DNA of 60,883 bases from the NCBI GenBank assembly GCA_964431805.1, contig CAYSKV010000006.1, forward strand, positions 1 through 60,883. Direction: 5' to 3'. Positions 6,809-60,883 of the stretch are shown piece after piece (position 1 is the stretch's first letter; every line of letters begins with the position of its first letter). The notes beneath the pieces were generated by a model. It did not search any database, was not told where the DNA came from, and was given only the letters and a program-made list of their open reading frames with translations. The stretch comes from an uncultured Gammaproteobacteria bacterium. Lineage in GTDB: Bacteria; Patescibacteriota; Patescibacteriia; Patescibacteriales; GWC2-42-12. The translations under genes were made by a program, and so were the position numbers.

Positions 6809-8170
6809 ATGAAACAAGACACCACCACATTGATGCCCCAAACAACAACCTTGAGGCAAAATCGAGGGACCCCGGAGATAATCGGGGTGCCTTCCATTAA
6901 CTATGTCCTTTACGCGAGAAAATCAACCGAATCGGAGGAACGACAAGTCCTTTCCATTGATTCACAAGTTAAGGAGATGCTTCAACTTGCCGAAAGAGAA
7001 AATTTGAATGTAGCCGAGATTAGAAGAGAATCTCATTCAGCTAAGGATACCGGCCAGAGAAAAGTTTTTAATGAAATTGTAAACGATATTCGAAAAGGAT
7101 TATTCAATGGAATCTTAACCTGGGCGCCAGACCGAATCGCCAGGAATGCCGGCGACCTCGGAGCCATAGTGGATTTGATGGACCAAAAACTATTATTAGA
7201 AATTAGAACATATGGACAAAAATTTTCTAATAACCCAAATGAAAAATTTCTGCTCATGATTTTAGGATCACAGGCCAAGCTGGAAAATGATAATCGTGGC
7301 GTTAACGTAAAGCGAGGTCTTCGAGCTAGGGTGGAAATGGGATTCTGGCCGACGCTGGCCCCAATCGGATATATGAATCAGAATCGTATGGATAAAAAAG
7401 GACAGGTTTTACCGGATCCTGTCCGCGCGCCAATTATTAAACAAATATTTGAAAAAGTTGCTTATGAAAAAGCCAGCGGTAGAAAAATATACCACTGGTT
7501 AAGATATGATCTAAATTTCCATACCAGAGGTAATAAGACTCTGAGCTTAAGCGGAATTTTTAGACTCTTAGATAGTACCTTCTATTATGGTACTTTTGAA
7601 TACCCAAAAGATAGCGGCAATTTTTATCAGGGCATACATAAACCGTTGATCACAAAAGAACTGTTTGAAAAAGCGCAAACACAGATAAAGCGAGATCAGA
7701 TAGTTAAGGGCTGTAAAGAATTCGCCTTCACTAAACTTATAACCTGCGGTTTATGTGGCTCCACTATTAGTGGAGAAGAAAAATACAAAACGCTAAAAGA
7801 CGGAACCGCGGTTAAATATGTCTATTACGGTTGTTGCCGGGCCAAAGATAAATGGTGCAAAAATAAATACATCCAGGAAAAGGATTTAATTAATGAACTA
7901 ATAAAAATAATAGATGAAGTTGATTTAAACGAGCTAGGCGTAAAAGCCAAGTTCGAAGATGAAATTGAAAGATTTAATAAATTCCAAGGAGTGCTATTCG
8001 GCAAGGAGAAGTCGGATCTGAAAAAGAAAGAAGTCGATATCCGCACTTACGCTAAATATCTATTAAAAGAAGGGAGTATTGTTGAAAAGCGGGAGTTGCT
8101 GGGTAATTTAAGAAGTAGATTAGTTTATATGGATATGAGTATAAAATTATCAAACGATAAGAGTATATAA
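6809..8170 (+). CDS. Large serine recombinase (resolvase + recombinase + Zn-ribbon domains)
   Basis: YARKSTE catalytic Ser motif, DRIARN, APIGY, CGLCG...YYGC. Confidence 0.95.
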   Translation: MKQDTTTLMPQTTTLRQNRGTPEIIGVPSINYVLYARKSTESEERQVLSIDSQVKEMLQLAERENLNVAEIRRESHSAKDTGQRKVFNEIVNDIRKGLFNGILTWAPDRIARNAGDLGAIVDLMDQKLLLEIRTYGQKFSNNPNEKFLLMILGSQAKLENDNRGVNVKRGLRARVEMGFWPTLAPIGYMNQNRMDKKGQVLPDPVRAPIIKQIFEKVAYEKASGRKIYHWLRYDLNFHTRGNKTLSLSGIFRLLDSTFYYGTFEYPKDSGNFYQGIHKPLITKELFEKAQTQIKRDQIVKGCKEFAFTKLITCGLCGSTISGEEKYKTLKDGTAVKYVYYGCCRAKDKWCKNKYIQEKDLINELIKIIDEVDLNELGVKAKFEDEIERFNKFQGVLFGKEKSDLKKKEVDIRTYAKYLLKEGSIVEKRELLGNLRSRLVYMDMSIKLSNDKSI

Positions 8171-8227
8171 TATTTGGCTAATAATAAACATTTTATATTA
8201 TTTTAACCTATGAAAACCTATGAACAC

Positions 8228-8256
8228 TTGACATTATTTTTAGAGCATGATAGACT
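8228..8256 (+). promoter_or_regulatory. Sigma70 promoter of the R-M/CBASS operon
   Basis: TTGACA-17 nt-TAGACT with TGn extended -10; lies inside the first 20 codons of the track ORF, so the real start is probably ATG 8270. Confidence 0.7.
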
Positions 8257-8269
8257 GATATTAAACTAT

Positions 8270-9955
8270 ATGAGAAAAGACATAAAAGAAAAACTCAAAG
8301 GAATGCCAGAGTTACTCTCCATCGGTCAGGTGGCAGAGATTTTTAGCATTCACCAAGATACTTTAAGAAACTGGGAAAAGGATGGCACCCTTGTCCCCCT
8401 TAGGGTTGGCCCACGTAAGGATCGCAAATATCGCCCACAAGATATTCAAGCCATCGTGGACAAAATGGGCAGTAAACTTACTTTACCTCAGCTTGAAGCT
8501 TTCCTTTGGAAGAGCGCCGATATTCTCCGAGGGAAAATCGACAGCTCTGATTATAAAAAATATATCTTCGGCCTATTATTTTATAAACGAATGAGTGATG
8601 TGTGGGATGAAGAATATGAGTCGGTAATGAAAGAATATAACGACAAGACAATTGCTGGCGCTGATTACAATCACCGCTTTCAAGTTCCAAAAGATTGCAA
8701 ATGGGCAGTTGTTACTGAACAAGCAGAAAGCATCGGTCAAAAGTTAAATGACATTTTTGAAAAGCTTGCTAATGCCAATAGTCCGAAGTTGGACAGAATT
8801 TTTGACGATCTTGATTTCTCAAATAGAGATCGTTTTCCGAACGAAACACTCCAAAGACTCATAAATCACTTTTCTCAATATAATTTTGGTAATACTTACA
8901 TTAGTTCAGACCTCTTAGGTGATGCATACGAATATCTTATCAAACAATTTGCGGCAGACGCAGGGAAAAAAGGCGGAGAATTCTACACGCCTCGTGAAGT
9001 TGAAAAAGTCATTATTGGAATTTTAAAGCCACATCAAAAAGACCATATTTATGATCCAACCGCTGGATCAGGAGGTTTCCTACTTGAGGCATATGACTAT
9101 CTAAAACAAAAATCTGGCGAAAAGATTGCCAAGACGCTTTATCTTTATGGTCAGGAATTAAACATCAGCACTTTTGCTATTGCAAAAATTAATATGTTTT
9201 TGCACGGTCTTGATAGCGCCGATATTCGACGTGGTGACACTATTGCAAATCCTCAATTTTTGACACAAAACGGCAATCTGCAAACATTCGACATCTGCGT
9301 AGCAAATCCGCCCTACTCAATTAAGGATTGGGAATCAGAAATTTTCAGAACAAATAAATATGGACGACTTGAGGGTTACGATATGCCTCCAGAAAAAAAT
9401 GCCGACTATGCTTTTGTTTTACATATCATTAAATCAATGAATGTAAACGGCCGGGCTGGCATCGTGCTTCCTCATGGCGTTCTGACCAGGCCTAACGCTG
9501 AAGCACGAATTCGTGAACAAATACTTAAGAATGATCTAATTGAAGCAGTCATTGCTTTACCACCAAAGCTTTTTTATGGCACAGGCATCCCAGCGGCTAT
9601 TTTAATTTTCAATAAAAACAAGCCTGAAAATAAGAAAAATAAGGTGTTGATTATTGATGCCGAGAAAGATTTTCTTGAGGGTAAAAATCAAAATTCCCTC
9701 CGACCGCAAGATATAAACAAAATCGTAAAAGCATACGATGGTTATTCTGATATTGAAAAATATGCTCGTATTGTTTCACTTAAAGAGATTGAAGATAAGG
9801 GATACAGCTTAAATATCCGTGATTTTATTGACTCATCCGAAGAAGATGAATTGATTGACGTTAAAACTGTAAGAAATGATATTATTTCTCTCAAAAAAGA
9901 TTTGGCGAAATCAGACGCATTGGTCGAGAGATACTTAGATGAACTGAATTATTAA
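8270..9955 (+). CDS. hsdM: Type I R-M methyltransferase with N-terminal MerR/Xis-like HTH (track start 8210)
   Basis: LWKSADILRG, GEFYTP, YDPTAGSGG, ANPPY motifs; N-terminal LSIGQVAEIFSIHQDTLRNWEKDG. Confidence 0.95.
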   Translation: MRKDIKEKLKGMPELLSIGQVAEIFSIHQDTLRNWEKDGTLVPLRVGPRKDRKYRPQDIQAIVDKMGSKLTLPQLEAFLWKSADILRGKIDSSDYKKYIFGLLFYKRMSDVWDEEYESVMKEYNDKTIAGADYNHRFQVPKDCKWAVVTEQAESIGQKLNDIFEKLANANSPKLDRIFDDLDFSNRDRFPNETLQRLINHFSQYNFGNTYISSDLLGDAYEYLIKQFAADAGKKGGEFYTPREVEKVIIGILKPHQKDHIYDPTAGSGGFLLEAYDYLKQKSGEKIAKTLYLYGQELNISTFAIAKINMFLHGLDSADIRRGDTIANPQFLTQNGNLQTFDICVANPPYSIKDWESEIFRTNKYGRLEGYDMPPEKNADYAFVLHIIKSMNVNGRAGIVLPHGVLTRPNAEARIREQILKNDLIEAVIALPPKLFYGTGIPAAILIFNKNKPENKKNKVLIIDAEKDFLEGKNQNSLRPQDINKIVKAYDGYSDIEKYARIVSLKEIEDKGYSLNIRDFIDSSEEDELIDVKTVRNDIISLKKDLAKSDALVERYLDELNY

Positions 9956-17772: not shown

Positions 17773-17832
17773 AAAATTTAATTGGTTTACCCTGTTAAAT
17801 AATTTTGCCTTTAGCAAAATTAGCGCGCAGCG

Positions 17833-18102
17833 CTATTTAACAGGGTTAAAAAATTTAATTAATTTTTCCGCCATTTCTTCAAACACGCTTAAATTAAGAG
17901 AATAAATTATCTCTTGGCCGCGTCTTCTGCTACTAACTAAATCGGCTTGCTTTAAAACATTTAAATGATGCGATAGCGAAGGCGGGGTAATGTCAAAATT
18001 TTTTCCAAGCTCCCCGGCCGCCATATCTTTTTTCTTTAATAGTTCTAAAATTTTACGCCTGGTTTGATCGGATAGGGCTTGTAAAGTAATATTTAAAGTC
18101 AT
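17833..18102 (-). CDS. sdpR: ArsR-family autorepressor, SdpR-like
   Basis: ALSDQTRRKILELL...SHHLNVLK...RRGQEIIYSLN; directly upstream of sdpI-like gene. Confidence 0.85.
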   Translation of the reverse strand: MTLNITLQALSDQTRRKILELLKKKDMAAGELGKNFDITPPSLSHHLNVLKQADLVSSRRRGQEIIYSLNLSVFEEMAEKLIKFFNPVK

Positions 18103-28411: not shown

Positions 28412-28499
28412 AAATTTAAAAAATTAATAAATTATCATACTTTACCCCCAACTTATCCACTTAAATAAATTTGACTAATATTAAACACTTATTTAAACT

Positions 28500-28577
28500 T
28501 AAGTCCACAAATTTGTGGACTTATCCACGATTTATTAAAAAAAATTAAAGTCCACAAATTTGTGGACTTTAATTTTT
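28500..28577. repeat. Two perfect palindromes AAGTCCACAAATTTGTGGACTT (28500-28523, 28540-28577)
   Basis: 24-bp and 38-bp perfect palindromes; TTATCCAC overlaps the first and another lies at ~28452. Confidence 0.9.
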
Positions 28578-43386: not shown

Positions 43387-43500
43387 TTAAGTCCACATAA
43401 ATGTGGACTTAAGTTGTTTATTAAAACTGTGGATAAAAAGTGGAGTATGTGGATAAATATCAGACTTAAGTCTACAAAAATGTAGACTTAAGTCTGATAT
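43387..43500. repeat. Two GACTTAAGTC-family palindromes flanking two perfect DnaA boxes
   Basis: IRs at 43387-43412 and 43457-43500; TGTGGATAA at 43428-43436 and 43448-43456. Confidence 0.9.
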
Positions 43501-44083
43501 TGAGTAAATTTAAAATATAAATTGGCTAAAATTAGTGAATTGTTTTATTTCATCTAGATTATTGACTTATTGCATTTTTAGTGGTATATTTATATTAGAA
43601 CATTAATAATATTTATAGAAAAGTTTTCCGAAGTTATGATTTGGGAGAATTTTTCTTTATTGCTGACTTAAAATGCCAGAGTTCACATGGCAATTTATAA
43701 AAACAAAAATAAAATAACGGTAGGTTTTCTTACAAAATAAAAATCAAGGAGATTTACCAAAAGACAGCAATAATTCGCATTTTTAAAGTGAACTATCAAT
43801 GCTTCAAACCTTGAAGATTAGGGATTTTCTTATCTATCCATTGGATGGAGAAGGAATATATCTTTAGGGATGGGGCTCAGGTTACGGCCTATATATCAAT
43901 TTTATTTTATATAAAAAGGGGCCCGTTCTGGGCCCTTTTTAAATACTTAAAATTTTATCTTGCCTCTTGCAAAAAAGCCCTATATAGCGTATATTATAAG
44001 TGATGATTTATTCCTAATATCAGGAATAAATTTTAGTTTCAAGTTAATTTTCTAAATTTATTTTTTGGGATAATTTAAATAAT

Positions 44084-44455: not shown

Positions 44456-44541
44456 GTTTTTATGTTTAAAGATATTAACCCCAGTTAGAAGTTTAGATTT
44501 TAATGAGTTGGGGTAAATTAATATTCTGATTATAAATTACC

Positions 44542-45033
44542 ATGCAAACTTCTAACGGGGTAAAAAAAATGATAGCGGTTAATCTAGCTGTCATTTTTTT
44601 TATTGGCCTAGACAGATTTTTAAAAGTTTTTTCTTTTAATAATCAGGATAGTGAATTTAATTTATTAGGCGAGATTTTAAAATTTAATTATAAAAATAAT
44701 TATAATATAGCTTTTTCTTTACCTTTGAATGGAAATTTTTTAATAGTTTTAATTGTTTTAATAATAATAATTTTAATATTACTAGGTTTGTTTTATGCTA
44801 AGAAAAATCAAACCAGGGAGGCAACAGTATTATTTTTAATTATTTTAGGCGCTAGTAGCAATTTATATGATAGATTGCAGTATGGTTTTGTGATTGATTA
44901 TTTAGATTTAAAATATTTTACTGTATTTAATTTAGCTGATATGATGATAGTTGGCGGCGTAATTTACTTATTATTTTTTATTAAAAATTATCAATATGAC
45001 ACAATTTTCACCAGAAAGATTATTAATAAATAA
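44542..45033 (+). CDS. lspA: Signal peptidase II
   Basis: NYNIAFS, GASSNLYDRL, VIDYL, FNLAD. Confidence 0.92.
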   Translation: MQTSNGVKKMIAVNLAVIFFIGLDRFLKVFSFNNQDSEFNLLGEILKFNYKNNYNIAFSLPLNGNFLIVLIVLIIIILILLGLFYAKKNQTREATVLFLIILGASSNLYDRLQYGFVIDYLDLKYFTVFNLADMMIVGGVIYLLFFIKNYQYDTIFTRKIINK

Positions 45034-46328: not shown

Positions 46329-46423
46329 GTTTACCCTGTTAGAGCTAAATATGATAAATTAATTTATGAGTTAAGTTAATCATTAATGAGTTAAAGACTA
46401 AACCGAATTAATCTCTAATAGGG

Positions 46424-46495
46424 TGGACAGTACAGGACTCGAACCTGTAACCCCTGCGATGTAAACGCAGTGCTCTACCATTGAGCTAACTGTCC
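46424..46495 (-). tRNA. tRNA-Val(TAC)
   Basis: Cloverleaf; ctgcg-ttTACat-cgcag. Confidence 0.95.
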
Positions 46496-49609: not shown

Positions 49610-51058
49610 CTAAGATAATTTTAAATCTTCTTTATTTATACCTTTAAGTAAATATAAACTAATAATATAAATTAACGCGCCTAATAAAATCACTAATATT
49701 AAATTTATTTTATCCATTAAAAAGTAAACGGCGACACCCATAATTAAACTGGCGATTAGAGATTTTAAAAATATCATTAAATTTGGGCTAAAATTAGAGT
49801 ATTTTATTATAATATAAAAAGAAAAAGCAGTGATAGCGAATTCGCTATAAACCGTTACCCAGGCGGCTCCGTTGTAAGAAAAAAGAGGAATAAAAATTAA
49901 ATAACCGATTAAAGAAGTTATTGCAGTGAAGATATAAGCGCCAATAATATTTTTTTGTTTATCTAAGGCAATAACGGCATGGGCAAATAAGCAACCGACA
50001 AAAATAAAACCGATGGCCAGCATTAATATTTTTAGAATATTACCCGATTGAGCAAAATTTTCTCCAGCTATCATTATCATTAATGGTTTGGCTGTAAGTT
50101 GGGCGCCGATGATTAAAGGAACGGCTGATATAACCATAACGTCAAATGATTTTTGTAAAATTTTATTAAACTTTTGTAAATTTTTATTAGACCATTCTAG
50201 TGTTAAAATTGGCAGAATTAAGCCAGCGAACATAAAAGGCAGGGTGGTTAAGATGTCAATTACTTTATAAGTAGCGCCGTATAACCCGACATCGGCTTGG
50301 CCTTTTAATAATGATAAAATAAAAATATCAGCTCTTAAGTAAATTAAATTAAAAAAAATGGTTAAGCCAAGCGGCCATGATTTTTTTATAATTTCACGCC
50401 AAACGCTTAAATCAATTTGCCAGCCAATTTTAATGAAACGACGAGAAAACCAATAATGCATAACAAAACTTATAAAACTTGAAATAACAGTTGCCACCAT
50501 AATACTTAACAAGCCTAAATTCATGTAAGCCGTTACAATAACCCCGGCAAGCAAAATTATTCGGCTAGCTACTTCAGCCGTAGCTACTACAGTCATGGTT
50601 AAATTTTTTTGGAAAAAACCAACTAAAATTTGGTTTAAGGCCGTAAAGAAAAACGACAAAGCCGTAACAGCCACGCCTAATTTAATAATTGGCTCATAGG
50701 GAAAAAATAAAATAACGAGCGGCGCTAAGCCTAGAAAAAATATGGCTGAAACTAAGCGTAAGCTAAAAAGATTATTTAATAAAACGCTTTGATTATTGCC
50801 CGGCTGGCTAATCATTTGTGAAGTGATTAAAGTTAAGCCAAAATCAGCGATAATGCCAAAAAAAGATAAAAAAGTAATAATGGTAGTATATTGACCGAAG
50901 CCAATTTCTTTTAAATATCTAGCCATAATGGCAATGGCTAATAACCCTACAATAGTGGCGATAACTTTGCCGATTATTTGGATAATGGTGTTATAAGCGA
51001 CTTGTGACGAAAGTTTTTGGTTCACCCCGTTAGAAATTTTATTGTTTTTTGTCTCCAT
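49610..51058 (-). CDS. Oligosaccharide flippase (Wzx/MOP family)
   Basis: Multiple TM; FGQY, ADFGL, LRADIFILS, VGLYGA.YK. Confidence 0.9.
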   Translation of the reverse strand: METKNNKISNGVNQKLSSQVAYNTIIQIIGKVIATIVGLLAIAIMARYLKEIGFGQYTTIITFLSFFGIIADFGLTLITSQMISQPGNNQSVLLNNLFSLRLVSAIFFLGLAPLVILFFPYEPIIKLGVAVTALSFFFTALNQILVGFFQKNLTMTVVATAEVASRIILLAGVIVTAYMNLGLLSIMVATVISSFISFVMHYWFSRRFIKIGWQIDLSVWREIIKKSWPLGLTIFFNLIYLRADIFILSLLKGQADVGLYGATYKVIDILTTLPFMFAGLILPILTLEWSNKNLQKFNKILQKSFDVMVISAVPLIIGAQLTAKPLMIMIAGENFAQSGNILKILMLAIGFIFVGCLFAHAVIALDKQKNIIGAYIFTAITSLIGYLIFIPLFSYNGAAWVTVYSEFAITAFSFYIIIKYSNFSPNLMIFLKSLIASLIMGVAVYFLMDKINLILVILLGALIYIISLYLLKGINKEDLKLS

Positions 51059-51328
51059 AGTAATATTTCAAACGATTTTTTAAATATTTTTTGCCCATGC
51101 CGCTTTTTAAATATTTTTCTCTAGCAAAAGCATCAAATTTATTATATGATATCTCAAAATATATAGGCTTAAATGGTTTTCTGTTCTTAGTTGCATATAC
51201 TTTTCCATCATTATGCTCCTTTATTCTGCTAACTATGTCTTTTGTACAGCCGGTATACCACAATTTGTCTTTTAAACTTTCTAAGACATAAACATACCAC
51301 AATGTTTTTTGTAAATTTCTAACGGGGT
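51024..51328. mobile_element. TIR-bounded element carrying GIY-YIG gene
   Basis: Perfect 16-bp inverted repeats ACCCCGTTAGAAATTT (51024-51039) / AAATTTCTAACGGGGT (51313-51328). Confidence 0.7.
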
Positions 51329-51332
51329 TCAT
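51039..51332 (-). CDS. Short stand-alone GIY-YIG nuclease (alternative TTG start 51302)
   Basis: YVYVLES...WYTGCT..I.SRIKEH...AFAREKYLKSG.G. Confidence 0.9.
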   Translation of the reverse strand: MNPVRNLQKTLWYVYVLESLKDKLWYTGCTKDIVSRIKEHNDGKVYATKNRKPFKPIYFEISYNKFDAFAREKYLKSGMGKKYLKNRLKYYYGDKKQ

Positions 51333-51571
51333 GTTTTTGCTTGAATTGTCTATTTTTAGTATAATTAAGGTAGAGATAGTTATAAAACTATTTCTACTGT
51401 AATTTGCTATTTTTTACCTATACTTCGTCAAGCTGGCGTAAAATTATTTCGCCGTAGCTTATGCTACGACTCAATTATTTTACTGGCTTTCCTTGTTTAG
51501 GCGAAAAATATCTAAATTTCGCTACGAAATAGTTTTATAACTATCTTATAATTAAATTATAGCAAAATAAT

Positions 51572-52030: not shown

Positions 52031-52132
52031 CATTTATATTTTATAAAATTATATTAACTAACTTAATAAATTAATTTATTGACCCCATTAAATTCGCTAG
52101 AAGCAAATTTATTCAACGGGGTGAAAAAAACT

Positions 52133-58383: not shown

Positions 58384-58414
58384 AAAATATTTAGTAATAA
58401 ATTTTATATGGAAA

Positions 58415-58484
58415 TGGATCCCGGATCAAGCCCGGGATGACGAAGGAAGAGATTGCTTCGCTTCTTGCAGAAGCTCGCAATGGC
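58415..58484. repeat. REP-like palindrome pair
   Basis: TGGATCCCGG.TCAAG.CCCGGGATGAC and GAGATTGCTTCG...CTCGCAATGGC. Confidence 0.7.
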
Positions 58485-59615: not shown

Positions 59616-59690
59616 TGGAGCGGGTAAGGGGAATCGAACCCCTCTCTCCAGCTTGGAAGGCTAGCATAAAAGCCACTATACGATACCCGC
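59616..59690 (-). tRNA. tRNA-Gly(TCC)
   Basis: Cloverleaf, encoded CCA; loop ctTCCaa. Confidence 0.95.
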
Positions 59691-59702
59691 TAAAAATCTT
59701 TG

Positions 59703-59773
59703 TCGGGCTGCTGGGAATTGAACCCAGTCAACATGCTCCCAAAGCATGCGTACTACCGGTATACGACAGCCCG
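59703..59773 (-). tRNA. tRNA-Pro(TGG)
   Basis: Cloverleaf; catgc-ttTGGga-gcatg. Confidence 0.93.
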
Positions 59774-59793
59774 AGTTCAATTAATAATTGAAA

Positions 59794-59868
59794 TGGTGCC
59801 GGGGGTGAGAATCGGACTCACGACACAATGATTTTCAGTCATTTGCTCTACCACTGAGCTACCCCGGC
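59794..59868 (-). tRNA. tRNA-Phe(GAA)
   Basis: Cloverleaf, encoded CCA; T-loop reads TCCGATT. Confidence 0.93.
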
Positions 59869-59883
59869 CTAATTGAATTCTTG

Positions 59884-59956
59884 TTGCGGGGGTCGGATTT
59901 GAACCGACGACCTCCAGGTTATGGGCCTGGCGAGCTGCCAACTGCTCTACCCCGCG
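59884..59956 (-). tRNA. Initiator tRNA-fMet(CAT)
   Basis: C1-A72 mismatch; anticodon arm ccagg-ccCATaa-cctgg. Confidence 0.9.
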
Positions 59957-59993
59957 ATACTACGCTAAAGCTTCGTATCGCAAGCTTAGCGAA

Positions 59994-60230
59994 TTAAACC
60001 AATCTTTTTTTAAAGAATGCATTTCCAGACCCAGTTTTTAGATATTGCTCAAAATAAGCTGCAATTGTTTTGTTTTTAAACATGCCAATCCAAACAACTT
60101 TAATGGGTAATCTATATTTTGTGTAATCAACTAAACTATTTTTATGTTGTACTATTCTTTTTTTAATATTTTCAGTTAAACCTATATAATAAGTTTTATC
60201 TGAACATAATAAAATATAAACGTAATACAT
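59994..60230 (-). CDS. Short stand-alone GIY-YIG nuclease (track start 60242)
   Basis: MYYVYILLC...YYIGLT..I..RI.QH...AAYFEQYLKTGSG. Confidence 0.9.
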   Translation of the reverse strand: MYYVYILLCSDKTYYIGLTENIKKRIVQHKNSLVDYTKYRLPIKVVWIGMFKNKTIAAYFEQYLKTGSGNAFFKKRLV

Positions 60231-60277
60231 AGACAATCCCATTAAGGCTTGTCCTCCATAGCTTCAGCGTAGGAGGG

Positions 60278-60351
60278 TGGGCATGCCGGGAATCGAACCT
60301 GGGACCTCCACATTATCAGTGTGGCGCTCTAACCAGCTGAGCTACATGCCC
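60278..60351 (-). tRNA. tRNA-Ile(GAT)
   Basis: Cloverleaf; ccaca-ctGATaa-tgtgg. Confidence 0.95.
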
Positions 60352-60540
60352 AAATATTATACAAAATAAAAAGACTGCTTCTAAATAATTTAGGACCAGT
60401 CTTTTTATAATTTATCCTCCGTAGCTTTAGCGAAGGGGGACAAATAGGCCCATAAAACTATTTGTTTATTTTTTTTGTATTTCAGTACTAACAGGCGCTA
60501 ACTCTTCGACTATTTCGATTGTTCACCGAAAAATCTCCCT

Positions 60541-60883
60541 AGAAAGGAGGTGATCCATCCACAGCTTCCGCTACGGATGCCTTGTTACGACTTCGTCCCT
60601 ATCATCGATCCTACCTTCGAACCCTTTACGGGGTTCTTCGGGCATTACCGACTCTCTTGACGTGACGGGCGGTGAGTACAAGACCCGAGAACGTATTCAA
60701 CGTGGCGTGGCTGATCCACGTTTACTAGCGATTCCAGCTTCATGAGGGCGAGTTGCAGCCCTCAATCCGAACTGAGAGAAGTTTTAAAGGATTTGCTCCA
60801 TCTTACGATTTGGCGTCCCTTTGTGCTTCCCATTGTAGCACGTGTGTCGCCCAAGGTGTAAGAACCATGCTGATTTGACGTCA
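60541..60883 (-). rRNA. rrs: 16S rRNA, 3' end (partial)
   Basis: AAGGAGGTGATCCA, CCTTGTTACGACTT, GACGGGCGGTGAGTACA, TTGTAGCACGTGTGT; anti-SD CCUCC present. Confidence 0.98.

Follow-up and report, generated by a model that had tools for sequence, protein, structure and literature searches.

A family of inverted-repeat elements carrying a small GIY-YIG nuclease gene resembles a very small bacterial transposon

Results

The nuclease gene and its repeats

The window analysed here is the whole of a 60,883-nucleotide stretch of DNA (contig CAYSKV010000006.1, assembly GCA_964431805.1), and it contains one gene-bearing and four short gene-less copies of an element with common ends. The gene-bearing copy (51021-51331) adjoins a Wzx flippase gene and carries the gene for a small GIY-YIG nuclease. 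The features are listed below by position in the window, with the strand where one applies.

17790-17845, no strand: E1, short gene-less element of the GTTAAAT subfamily, between arsR-like and sdpI-like genes (Pfam), with flanks TTTA and TTAA
44479-44560, no strand: E2, short gene-less element between a dksA/traR-like gene and lspA, with flanks TTAA and TAAA
46334-46423, no strand: E3, short gene-less element between the 3' end of a tRNA-Val gene and the start codon of tsaE
51021-51024, no strand: copy 1 of the flanking direct repeat TTCA (TGAA in gene orientation), from the sequence and the family-wide start-codon pattern at junctions
51024-51039, no strand: flippase-side arm, the 16-nt inverted repeat as first drawn, containing the invariant core CCGTTAGA
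51025-51327, minus strand: core of the gene-bearing element (CCCCGTTAGAAATTT ... AAATTTCTAACGGGG), 303 bp, with a perfect inverted repeat; same anatomy at 65 of 80 homologous loci
51039-51332, minus strand: GIY-YIG nuclease gene, 97 aa, single domain (Pfam PF01541, E = 2e-14)
51313-51328, no strand: arm at the 5' end of the GIY-YIG gene, encoding nuclease residues NPVRN; the N-terminus MNPVR recurs in most homologues
51328-51331, no strand: copy 2 of the flanking direct repeat TTCA/TGAA, overlapping the nuclease ATG (51330-51332, minus strand)
52083-52121, no strand: E5, short decayed element of the GTTAAAT subfamily, between two T4SS-pilin-like genes, with flanks TTGA and TGAA

An exact 16-bp inverted repeat brackets the nuclease gene: ACCCCGTTAGAAATTT on the plus strand at 51024-51039, and its perfect reverse complement at 51313-51328. 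These arms and the Pfam match bear out the initial annotation, which had drawn perfect 16-bp repeats around a GIY-YIG reading frame. Its statement that no target duplication was evident has to be revised, as TTCA flanks both ends of the gene-bearing copy and 4-nt direct repeats are a hallmark of the family. The GTG at 51023-51025 (minus strand), formed from the TGAA repeat and the last base of the core, is likely to be the start of the Wzx flippase gene.

The gene-bearing element is retained at the orthologous site in the relatives L001-L011, and the dN/dS of the nuclease gene against its orthologues is 0.17-0.30 (lineage of the window, L012 and L013). Comparison of these loci indicates that the insertion at 51021-51331 is old, vertically inherited and under purifying selection. 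Its flanks read TGAA/TGAA in the window and in L012, but TGGA/TGGA in L013, an odd difference between orthologues that counts against one single old insertion.

Short gene-less copies in the window

The end motif ACCCYRTTA occurs eight times in the window, against 1.84 occurrences expected, and none of 100 shuffles reached eight. The occurrences pair at 17789/17846, 46333/46424 and 51024/51328; the unpaired half-hits at 44561 and 52082 have imperfect partner arms, namely a left arm at 44478 with a 1-nt insertion (CCCCaGTTAG) and a right arm at 52122 that reads CAACGGGGT. Within the window, a perfect flanking pair is found at the gene-bearing copy only. The four short elements to which the initial annotation had given the ends of the gene-bearing copy were recovered in place, two of them by way of imperfect partner arms, and the 17.8-kb and 52.1-kb copies do have the interior similarity that it had noticed; all four are gene-less members of the family of the gene-bearing copy. 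The elements of the window fold into hairpins on either strand (z = -7.5 for E1), the fold of E5 on the plus strand being weak (z = -1.65).

Relatives provide both filled and empty orthologous sites for these copies: E2 is present in L012, and the site in L013 is empty with clean borders; E3 is present in L001 and missing in L006 and L013, where the empty site ends in ACTGTCCAC followed directly by ATGAAA; and E5 has a longer version in L012 and is apparently missing in L013. Alignment of empty sites, which had been suggested as a check, finds the short copies to be insertion/deletion polymorphisms between orthologous sites, and shows that at least two of the four short hairpins of the window are true insertions: E2 and E3 are cleanly absent from the L013 sites, and a third copy, E5, is probably absent there too. 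The filled and empty sites of E3 match an insertion of the core plus TAAA better than a clean duplication of TCCA, which counts against simple duplication. An IS608-like model (a target tetranucleotide and an element-borne right tetranucleotide) was prompted by E2 and E3 and by the covariation of TGAA and TGGA; against it, the related short copies of different genomes have matching pairs of their own in each case (TTTA, TGAA, GGA), and the model is therefore not preferred.

Anatomy and distribution of the family

Among 80 homologue loci from GTDB, the gene is strictly bracketed by arms that form a 13-bp stem at 65, distributed over at least six phyla, and nearly all homologues have an arm within ~250 nt. 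The enrichment of flanking inverted repeats on which the initial annotation had made its proposal depend is therefore present, and its view of gene-bearing and gene-less copies as one family with common ends is supported. The 1.01 Mb of homologue loci hold 30 further short copies (0-3 in shuffled sequence), about half of them less than 1 kb from the nuclease gene, and the ratio of short to gene-bearing copies is ~25 to 1. The gene is found at 3 of 120 short-copy loci, a contig-scale count that says little about co-occurrence. In most genomes the unit measures ~277 bp, the window copy being longer at 303 bp; the sizes of arm pairs are bimodal, with one class under 200 bp and the GIY-YIG class at ~277 bp. 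Arrays of abutting elements also occur (for example, at L017, L073 and L083). Carriage by phages was considered and rejected, IMG/VR yielding only four distant relatives, one of them with similar arms.

The stem is built on an invariant 8-nt core (CCGTTAGA/TCTAACGG), and the arms can pair over 13-16 bp. In 91 family members, stem positions -2 to +10 are Watson-Crick paired in 93-100% of cases, and positions -2, +8, +9 and +10 covary, each with two to four pair types; mismatches in the stem are too few for the asymmetry of G-T versus A-C to indicate the hairpin strand.

Target duplications and other signs of mobility

Perfect 4-nt direct repeats flank 35 of 92 copies, where permutations averaged 10.8 and never exceeded 18, and in an independent metagenome set they flank 82 of 126 short copies (permutation mean 12.4, maximum 26); the duplicated tetranucleotide is mostly TNNA. 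The gene-bearing copies count against this picture in part: only 22 of 63 have perfect flanking repeats, and the flanks of the remaining ones are biased and non-matching (left TTTA, CTTG or TTCA; right TGAA or TAAA).

Some genomes hold more than one gene-bearing copy. A single-cell genome of Elusimicrobiota has two at different sites that are ~96% identical within the element, the similarity stopping at the left arm and ~12 nt past the right arm; a Jorgensenbacteria metagenome-assembled genome has two, and L077 likewise. At L080 (8285-8470) lies an internally deleted remnant that has kept the 3' coding end, so short copies can arise from gene-bearing ones. Other cargo is occasionally enclosed: the relative L001 has an arm-bounded element with a tRNA-Val gene that is missing from the window, its flanks (TTCA/CAAG) fitting no simple duplication and so counting against that mode of insertion, and L150 possibly has HigBA between arms.

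Junctions with host start codons

Many copies lie exactly on host start codons (ATGAA). An RTG start is formed at the junction in 23 of the 63 gene-bearing copies, and a start lies within 30 nt in a further 22 of the 63; in 11 of 63 a reading frame that opens in the left repeat closes at the TGA of the right one, with this nuclease stop codon overlapping the rebuilt host start codon. Host N-termini are recognizable at the junctions (for example, MKGIILAGG of RfbA), and elsewhere the GGGGT end precedes the host ATG by 4-10 nt, in the manner of a Shine-Dalgarno sequence. The "peptide scars" that had been described at protein termini are mostly the product of insertion at start codons and of reading frames called through the arms, not of in-frame insertions into proteins. 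Short upstream reading frames were rejected as a general coupling device: most end after 6-17 codons.

These junctions partly reveal how insertions may be tolerated. The element often lands on ATGAA, a start codon followed by AA; the nuclease reading frame (MNPVR...) would then begin in the left duplicate, and the last purine of the element together with the TG on the right would restore ATG or GTG for the host gene. No description of a start-codon-rebuilding junction was found for known elements, and such a junction may be a tolerance strategy for a mobile element in very compact genomes.

The position of the elements just 5' of start codons, co-directional with the flanking genes, could also be read as that of hairpins that act in RNA and never move (attenuators, RNase III sites or translational operators conserved upstream of genes); the stem would sequester the SD-like GGGG, and the covariation implies that pairing matters. 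We strongly disfavour this reading and regard it as highly improbable. Presence and absence are clean at orthologous sites, 4-nt direct repeats flank 65% of the copies in the metagenome set, and the same core precedes unrelated genes in many phyla. A gathering-threshold scan of the window with Rfam returned tRNAs and rRNA only and no family on the elements. Finally, 21% of the metagenomic copies lie inside open reading frames; compared with the 51% expected, the elements are depleted from coding DNA, though not exclusive of it.

The nuclease

The PF01541 domain spans residues 12-81 of the 97-aa protein and is its sole Pfam domain; no NCBIfam model matches the nuclease. PDB entry 1zg2 was matched by sequence at E = 5e-7, and the AF2 model (pLDDT 88) has the beta-beta-alpha-beta-alpha topology of 1zg2 and Slx1. 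The nearest folds are UPF0213 BH0048 and Slx1 (1zg2 and Slx1 by Foldseek), with I-TevI a weak match at rank 16, and all of 35 homologues keep the catalytic residues Y15, Y26, G28, R36, H40, E72 and N86. By its fold and full catalytic residue set the protein of the window belongs to the GIY-YIG superfamily, and the nuclease of the family is a ~90-aa single-domain member, probably of the UPF0213/Slx1 branch.

As the nearest relatives in sequence and fold, the UPF0213 proteins (YazA/YhbQ) and Slx1 offer some guidance: Slx1 cuts branched DNA, which is compatible with cutting at the base of a stem, but it requires Slx4 and extra domains. The yazA gene of B. subtilis, unlike the gene in the window, lies between housekeeping genes, and the stretch examined around it has no repeats at its flanks. 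With the family profile, B. subtilis YazA reaches 55.6 bits and four Ssn-type proteins reach 29-48 bits.

Comparison with known systems

The closest known system, related in concept, is that of the Ssn nucleases with their NTS/SRM hairpin repeats, a published partnership of GIY-YIG enzymes and palindromic repeats (Chenal et al., Nat Commun 2025, PMC11893778). A lone GIY-YIG protein of ~94 aa binds the flanking hairpin repeat and cuts beside it, and the authors themselves draw the analogies to an IS-like layout and to REP/RAYT (PMC11893778); the premise of the initial annotation, which knew GIY-YIG enzymes solely in homing and repair, is accordingly out of date. Literature on GIY-YIG enzymes with terminal inverted repeats or transposases, or with REPIN/RAYT, contained nothing closer than this paper (PMC11893778), and the arm sequences appeared in the literature only in unrelated primers.

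Both systems have a lone single-domain GIY-YIG protein of ~90-110 aa encoded between inverted copies of a genome-wide hairpin repeat, and the bracketed Ssn layout was recovered around ssnA of N. gonorrhoeae. The paper assigns proteins to the Ssn clade by their CDD top hit together with a blastp match to Nm SsnA (E < 1e-10, query cover 75%), and site-specific cleavage confined to single-stranded DNA is a further trait of the Ssn family (PMC11893778). Pairwise comparison of the window protein with gonococcal SsnA gives 33% identity at E = 2e-10, the alignment taking in 64 of its 97 residues (66%). The C-terminus of the window clade is KSGMGKRYLKNRLK, whereas that of Ssn is KKWxRxWKxxLIE. The Ssn repeats are self-contained hairpins of ~30 nt with a GTCAT tail, whereas the window family has one split 13-bp stem that encloses its cargo. 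The SRM pattern (HGTCWY...hairpin...RNCYNB) has seven matches in the 1.47-kb gonococcal ssnA locus, none in the family arms, and a single match in the whole window (58414-58442), 7 kb from the gene. Target duplications of 4 bp, empty sites and cargo variants distinguish the window family, none having been reported for Ssn.

The REP/RAYT-like reading first given to this locus holds in part: one small gene lies between inverted palindromic repeats, the hairpin-forming non-autonomous copies are far more numerous, the gene persists vertically over long periods (lineage of the window, L012 and L013), and compensatory changes keep the stem. In contrast to RAYT, an HUH/Y1 (IS200-like) transposase, the only reading frame in the window element encodes a GIY-YIG hydrolase, some genomes hold several gene-bearing copies, and the family carries target duplications, which REP/IS200-type single-strand transposition does not make and which place its anatomy nearer to pairs of insertion sequences and MITEs. 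With the latter (Correia elements and IS-derived MITEs) it shares terminal inverted repeats common to coding and non-coding copies, a fixed 4-bp duplication at a preferred target (TNNA), internally deleted derivatives and insertion close to genes. It differs in that its presumed autonomous partner, at only ~277 bp, has no gene for a DDE, serine, tyrosine or HUH enzyme, and in that the arms covary freely outside the 8-nt core, an indication that pairing matters and not protein contacts alone.

Discussion

The family resembles a very small, previously undescribed bacterial transposon, and we consider it probable that positions 51021-51331 of the window are one coding member of a family of compact mobile elements, with the nuclease as its likely mobiliser. 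The nuclease, as the mobilising enzyme, would recognize the stem formed by the arms, whether extruded as a cruciform or folded as a hairpin in single-stranded DNA, which is suggested because its relative Slx1 recognizes branched DNA and the Ssn nucleases recognize single-stranded DNA hairpins. Hydrolytic cuts at the base of the stem and 4-nt-staggered cuts at a TNNA target could then be followed by host ligase and repair synthesis, which would join the ends and create the duplication. To our knowledge, GIY-YIG enzymes are hydrolases with no strand-transfer or ligation activity, which counts against this model at the joining steps.

A more specific reading is put forward tentatively: these may be autonomous elements of ~277 bp whose transposase is a bare 90-aa GIY-YIG hydrolase, with near-silent insertion at start codons and the capture of cargo (the tRNA gene). 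Insertions would be nearly silent because insertion into ATGAA gives the nuclease that codon and rebuilds the RTG of the host. We know of no described autonomous bacterial insertion sequence as small as ~277 bp, nor of a case in which the GIY-YIG catalytic class drives transposition with terminal inverted repeats and target duplications in prokaryotes.

Terminal inverted repeats with a 4-bp target duplication are also the classic signature of DDE transposition, and the nuclease could be a passenger or a domesticated gene: the arms would belong to a MITE family of a conventional transposase, and the GIY-YIG protein would be either cargo or a host nuclease of the Ssn kind, for which the repeats serve only as recognition sites, perhaps in the restriction of single-stranded DNA that enters the cell. 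The other cargo between arms (tRNA-Val in L001, possibly HigBA in L150) and the old, syntenic gene under purifying selection at the window locus fit such an origin, and Ssn nucleases have been shown to modulate transformation, not to transpose (PMC11893778). We nevertheless consider it unlikely. In 1.78 Mb of arm-containing DNA there is no transposase-sized class of arm pairs, and a DDE-type parent element was sought among arm pairs 400-6000 bp apart and not found, the larger intervals holding ordinary host genes. The nuclease is the only gene that recurs between the arms, across at least six phyla, and near-identical gene-bearing copies occur at different sites within one cell.

The clustering of short copies by the gene (about half of the 30 within 1 kb) and the arrays of abutting elements (L017, L073, L083) would also be expected if the repeats came first, as targets and not products, and a selfish nuclease gene homed into the loop of a pre-existing palindrome; GIY-YIG genes are the classic free-standing homing endonucleases (T4 Seg proteins, I-TevI), with which the family has in common a selfish GIY-YIG gene spreading without disruption of the host. 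This origin appears quite improbable, since the nuclease reading frame often codes through both arms (MNPVR... / ...SLTG) and fills the whole element, and the remnant at L080 shows that short copies are derivable from gene-bearing ones. Unlike homing endonucleases, the window family has many unrelated insertion sites and no single conserved homing site, and its protein has no DNA-binding domain with which to recognize a long one; the target duplications of the short copies would also be left unexplained.

If the nuclease does move these elements, as we favour, it would represent a new catalytic class in bacterial transposition, and autonomous mobile elements could be smaller than the limit so far accepted. 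The family extends the Ssn result from a nuclease that recognizes genomic hairpin repeats to evidence of repeat insertion and target duplication. At the practical level, the elements currently distort gene calls through N-terminal extensions and wrong start codons, and a structure- or sequence-specific nuclease of 90 aa with a defined 8-nt core site, like the Ssn enzymes, is a possible laboratory tool. In Patescibacteria and several further phyla, the recurrent peptide ends MNPVR and SLTG and the small hairpins between genes are explained by this family.

Elements in the window

The gene-bearing element comprises the following features:

51024-51039: arm, 16-mer ACCCCGTTAGAAATTT, with its exact reverse complement at 51313-51328
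51039..51332, minus strand: GIY-YIG nuclease ORF, 97 aa, between the arms, with a single Pfam domain (GIY-YIG, E = 2e-14)

The initial annotation had described this arrangement, together with short elements sharing its ends at gene boundaries; the description held in the window and was then generalised beyond it. The window contains 8 matches to the end motif ACCCYRTTA where 1.84 are expected (0 of 100 shuffles reached 8), and these pair up into the elements so described. The four short copies (17.8, 44.5, 46.3 and 52.1 kb) fold into hairpins on either strand, two of them with imperfect arms (a 1-nt insertion at 44478; CAACGGGGT at 52122). Each of the five elements occupies a gap directly upstream of the next gene's start, with co-directional genes on the two sides, and the 46.3-kb copy (E3) adjoins the 3' end of tRNA-Val.

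Other repeats occur nearby. A 173-bp element at 51374-51546, between the GIY-YIG and pilin genes, has perfect 21-bp inverted repeats (AGATAGTTATAAAACTATTTC / GAAATAGTTTTATAACTATCT) and is unrelated to the family; it is missing at the same site in contigs L001, L003 and L006-L011 from relatives and is therefore a separate recent insertion. Another hairpin repeat family (AAGTCCACAAATTTGTGGACTT) is clustered at 28495-28577 and 43387-43501, one cluster just after tRNA-Cys. A run of six tRNA genes (59616-60352, minus strand) precedes the 3' part of a 16S rRNA gene at the window end (60543-60883).

Spread of the unit and conservation of its stem

The window nuclease has hundreds of close protein relatives, mainly in Patescibacteria; MNPVR(N/E/D) is the N-terminus of most of them and FLSLTG the C-terminus of many, and these ends are translations of the two arms. 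Every junction was printed for 80 loci from GTDB species genomes, with labelled taxa including Patescibacteria, Omnitrophota, Planctomycetota, Syntrophales/Thermodesulfobacteriota, Elusimicrobiota, Bacteroidota and others. Whether the gene is repeatedly flanked by inverted repeats had been proposed as a check, and it is: under a strict criterion, which required complementarity at 13 or more of 17 positions about a CYRTTAR core, arms bracket the gene at 65 of the 80 loci. Among the 15 failing loci, several show bracketing with a single mismatch or arms immediately next to the gene. The same 1.01 Mb contains 30 further short copies (shuffled sequence: 0-3).

Among 91 distinct copies, Watson-Crick pairing at stem positions -2 to +10 is 93-100%, and the central eight (CCGTTAGA) show virtually no variation. 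Two to four pair types occur at each of positions -2, +8, +9 and +10 with complementarity kept, and rare arm variants are altered on both sides at once (ACTCC/GGAGT, ATACC/GGTAT, CCACG/CGTGG), indicating that arm pairing matters in addition to core sequence; the copy-selection rule favours complementarity, yet demands far less than is seen at the covarying positions.

The catalytic residues of the nuclease are invariant among homologues. Its dN/dS against two orthologues is 0.30 and 0.17, and its divergence from them is similar to that of neighbouring genes; the insertion at the window locus is therefore old, vertically inherited and functional. The AlphaFold model is a confident GIY-YIG fold (pLDDT 88), with UPF0213 BH0048 and Slx1, a structure-selective nuclease, as the nearest solved structures.

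Target duplications and insertion polymorphism

With the core taken as YCCCG...CGGGR and four bases compared on each side, 35 of 92 copies in the GTDB loci have identical 4-nt flanks (permutations: mean 10.8, maximum 18), and when TGAA-left cases are excluded 13 of 68 do, against 1.9. In an independent JGI metagenome sample, perfect 4-nt direct repeats, nearly all of the form TNNA, flank 82 of 126 distinct short copies (permutations: mean 12.4, maximum 26 in 5000). Three related short copies from three genomes carry TTTA/TTTA, TGAA/TGAA and GGA/GGA, and such differing matched pairs point to target-duplication behaviour rather than an element-borne end.

Two sister genomes (L001/L012 and L006/L013), with nucleases 91% and 85% identical to the window's and the same gene order, provide comparisons of occupied and empty sites. 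E3 is missing between tRNA-Val and tsaE in L006/L013, leaving the empty site ...ACTGTCCAC|ATGAAA; the 44.5-kb copy (E2) is missing in L013 with clean borders; and the 52.1-kb copy (E5) is 15 nt longer in L012 than in the window and probably absent from L013. Conversely, L001/L012 carry at ~8160-8290 (orthologous to window 46422-46495) an arm-bounded element, ACCCCGTTAAATTTATGG...CCATATTTAACGGGG, that the window lacks. Its cargo is a complete, diverged tRNA-Val(TAC) lying within the anticodon loop of the resident tRNA-Val, where ARAGORN calls the inner gene only; its flanks, TTCA/CAAG, do not fit a simple 4-bp duplication.

By these alignments and flanks, the family's elements are insertions with target duplications. 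The initial annotation had found no target duplication evident, but TGAA flanks the gene-bearing copy of the window at either end (51021-51024 / 51328-51331). The orthologous insertion has TGAA/TGAA in L012 and TGGA/TGGA in L013 (~9131-9440), a joint change of the pair that would not be expected of one old insertion. Matching flanks are found in only about one third of gene-bearing copies; the remainder have TTTA, CTTG or TTCA on the left versus TGAA or TAAA on the right, a mismatch that the target-duplication reading does not explain, and for E3 and E2 'core plus TAAA' is as good a fit as a clean duplication, or a better one.

Insertion at translation starts

Junctions were counted in 63 non-redundant gene-bearing copies. 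An ATG or GTG stands five bases before the core (ATGAA|core) in 23 of them; in 23 the last core base and the right-hand TG form an ATG or GTG opening an ORF of at least 60 codons, and a start is found within 30 nt in a further 22. In 11 of 63, the left repeat's ATG opens the nuclease ORF and a TGA in the right repeat, overlapping the host's rebuilt start codon, closes it, so that the element is without any non-coding base. Recognisable host N-termini at junctions include RfbA (MKGIILAGG), an epimerase ((V)KLFVTGSDGFIGS) and a Der-type GTPase (MKKIVLLGQVNVGKS). For the window flippase, the junction GTG (51023-51025, minus strand) is the most likely start, but an ATG within the nuclease gene, 33 nt further upstream, is conserved too and may be used instead. 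In the metagenome sample 21% of short copies lie inside ORFs versus 51% of random windows, a depletion rather than an exclusion. These start-codon sites may reflect either targeting or survivorship.

The nuclease-bearing unit as the probable autonomous form

By length, arm pairs form two groups: one of <200 bp, and one of 265-311 bp that has its mode at 277 bp and corresponds to the GIY-YIG elements. Above 311 bp they are scattered pairings between neighbouring elements, with ordinary host genes inside, and no transposase was seen between arms in 1.78 Mb of arm-containing DNA. Two gene-bearing copies, ~96% identical within the element, lie on different contigs of a single-cell Elusimicrobiota genome, and their similarity ends at the left arm and ~12 nt past the right arm; a Jorgensenbacteria MAG also has two copies, and another locus (L077) has two within 2.3 kb. 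At L080 8285-8470, both arms and the last nuclease codons are kept and the middle is lost; this is a deletion derivative of a gene-bearing copy. The size classes, the lack of a transposase class, the near-identical copies and this derivative together support the autonomous/non-autonomous family proposed initially. About half of the extra short copies in gene-centred loci lie within 1 kb of the gene, and only 1 of 120 short-copy-centred loci has the nuclease gene within 1 kb, which gives, very roughly, 25 short copies per gene. That the nuclease mobilises the family is the best-supported reading, and a reasonably probable one.

At L150 2819-4232, arms with TTTA on both sides surround a HigB/HigA-like toxin-antitoxin pair, which could be cargo or could instead lie between two neighbouring elements.

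Comparison with known systems

The closest published system is Ssn (PMC11893778), so that the earlier view of GIY-YIG enzymes as homing and repair nucleases without such a precedent is outdated. SsnA consists of one GIY-YIG domain in 94 aa. The hairpin repeat that it binds (NTS/SRM) lies on both sides of ssnA and occurs hundreds of times per genome, and SsnA cleaves single-stranded DNA next to this repeat; the authors of that study pointed out the IS-like layout and the REP/RAYT parallel, and insertion polymorphism and target duplications are not reported (PMC11893778). Gonococcal ssnA was recovered here together with NTS repeats. Gonococcal SsnA is 33% identical to the window protein over 64 residues, B. 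subtilis YazA (UPF0213) obtains a higher score than four Ssn-type proteins with a profile of the window clade, and the published SRM pattern matches 0 window-family arms and 7 sites in the gonococcal ssnA locus. Each Ssn repeat forms a complete hairpin by itself and has a GTCAT tail, whereas in the window family one stem is split and encloses the cargo. These differences lead us to regard the family as similar to Ssn in general kind but parallel to it, rather than as a demonstrated Ssn member.

The sole window match to the published Ssn-related motif, CGTCATCCCGGGCTTGATCCGGGATCCAT (58414-58442, minus strand; 10 shuffles gave 0), lies between khpA and trmD beside a second hairpin, CATTGCGAGCTTCTGCAAGAAGCGAAGCAATC, with no Ssn-type gene nearby. 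On an IMG/VR viral contig (L099, 1-900), a distant GIY-YIG gene (44% identity) is flanked on each side by a partial copy of one and the same tRNA gene, an arrangement different from that of the arm-bounded family.

The suggested likeness to REP/RAYT systems holds for population structure, but the family differs in enzyme class and in having target duplications; it resembles IS/MITE pairs in anatomy, but without a known transposase fold.

Proposed mechanism

We favour a model in which the two arms would pair into a stem, either within a cruciform or as a single-stranded hairpin, and this stem would be what the nuclease recognises; the covarying stem with its invariant core, the resemblance of the fold to Slx1 and the precedent of Ssn all agree with such recognition. 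The nuclease would cut at the stem base and, staggered by 4 nt, at TNNA targets, where gap filling would produce the target duplication. To our knowledge, a hydrolytic GIY-YIG nuclease is incapable of joining DNA, and host ligation and repair would therefore have to complete any move.
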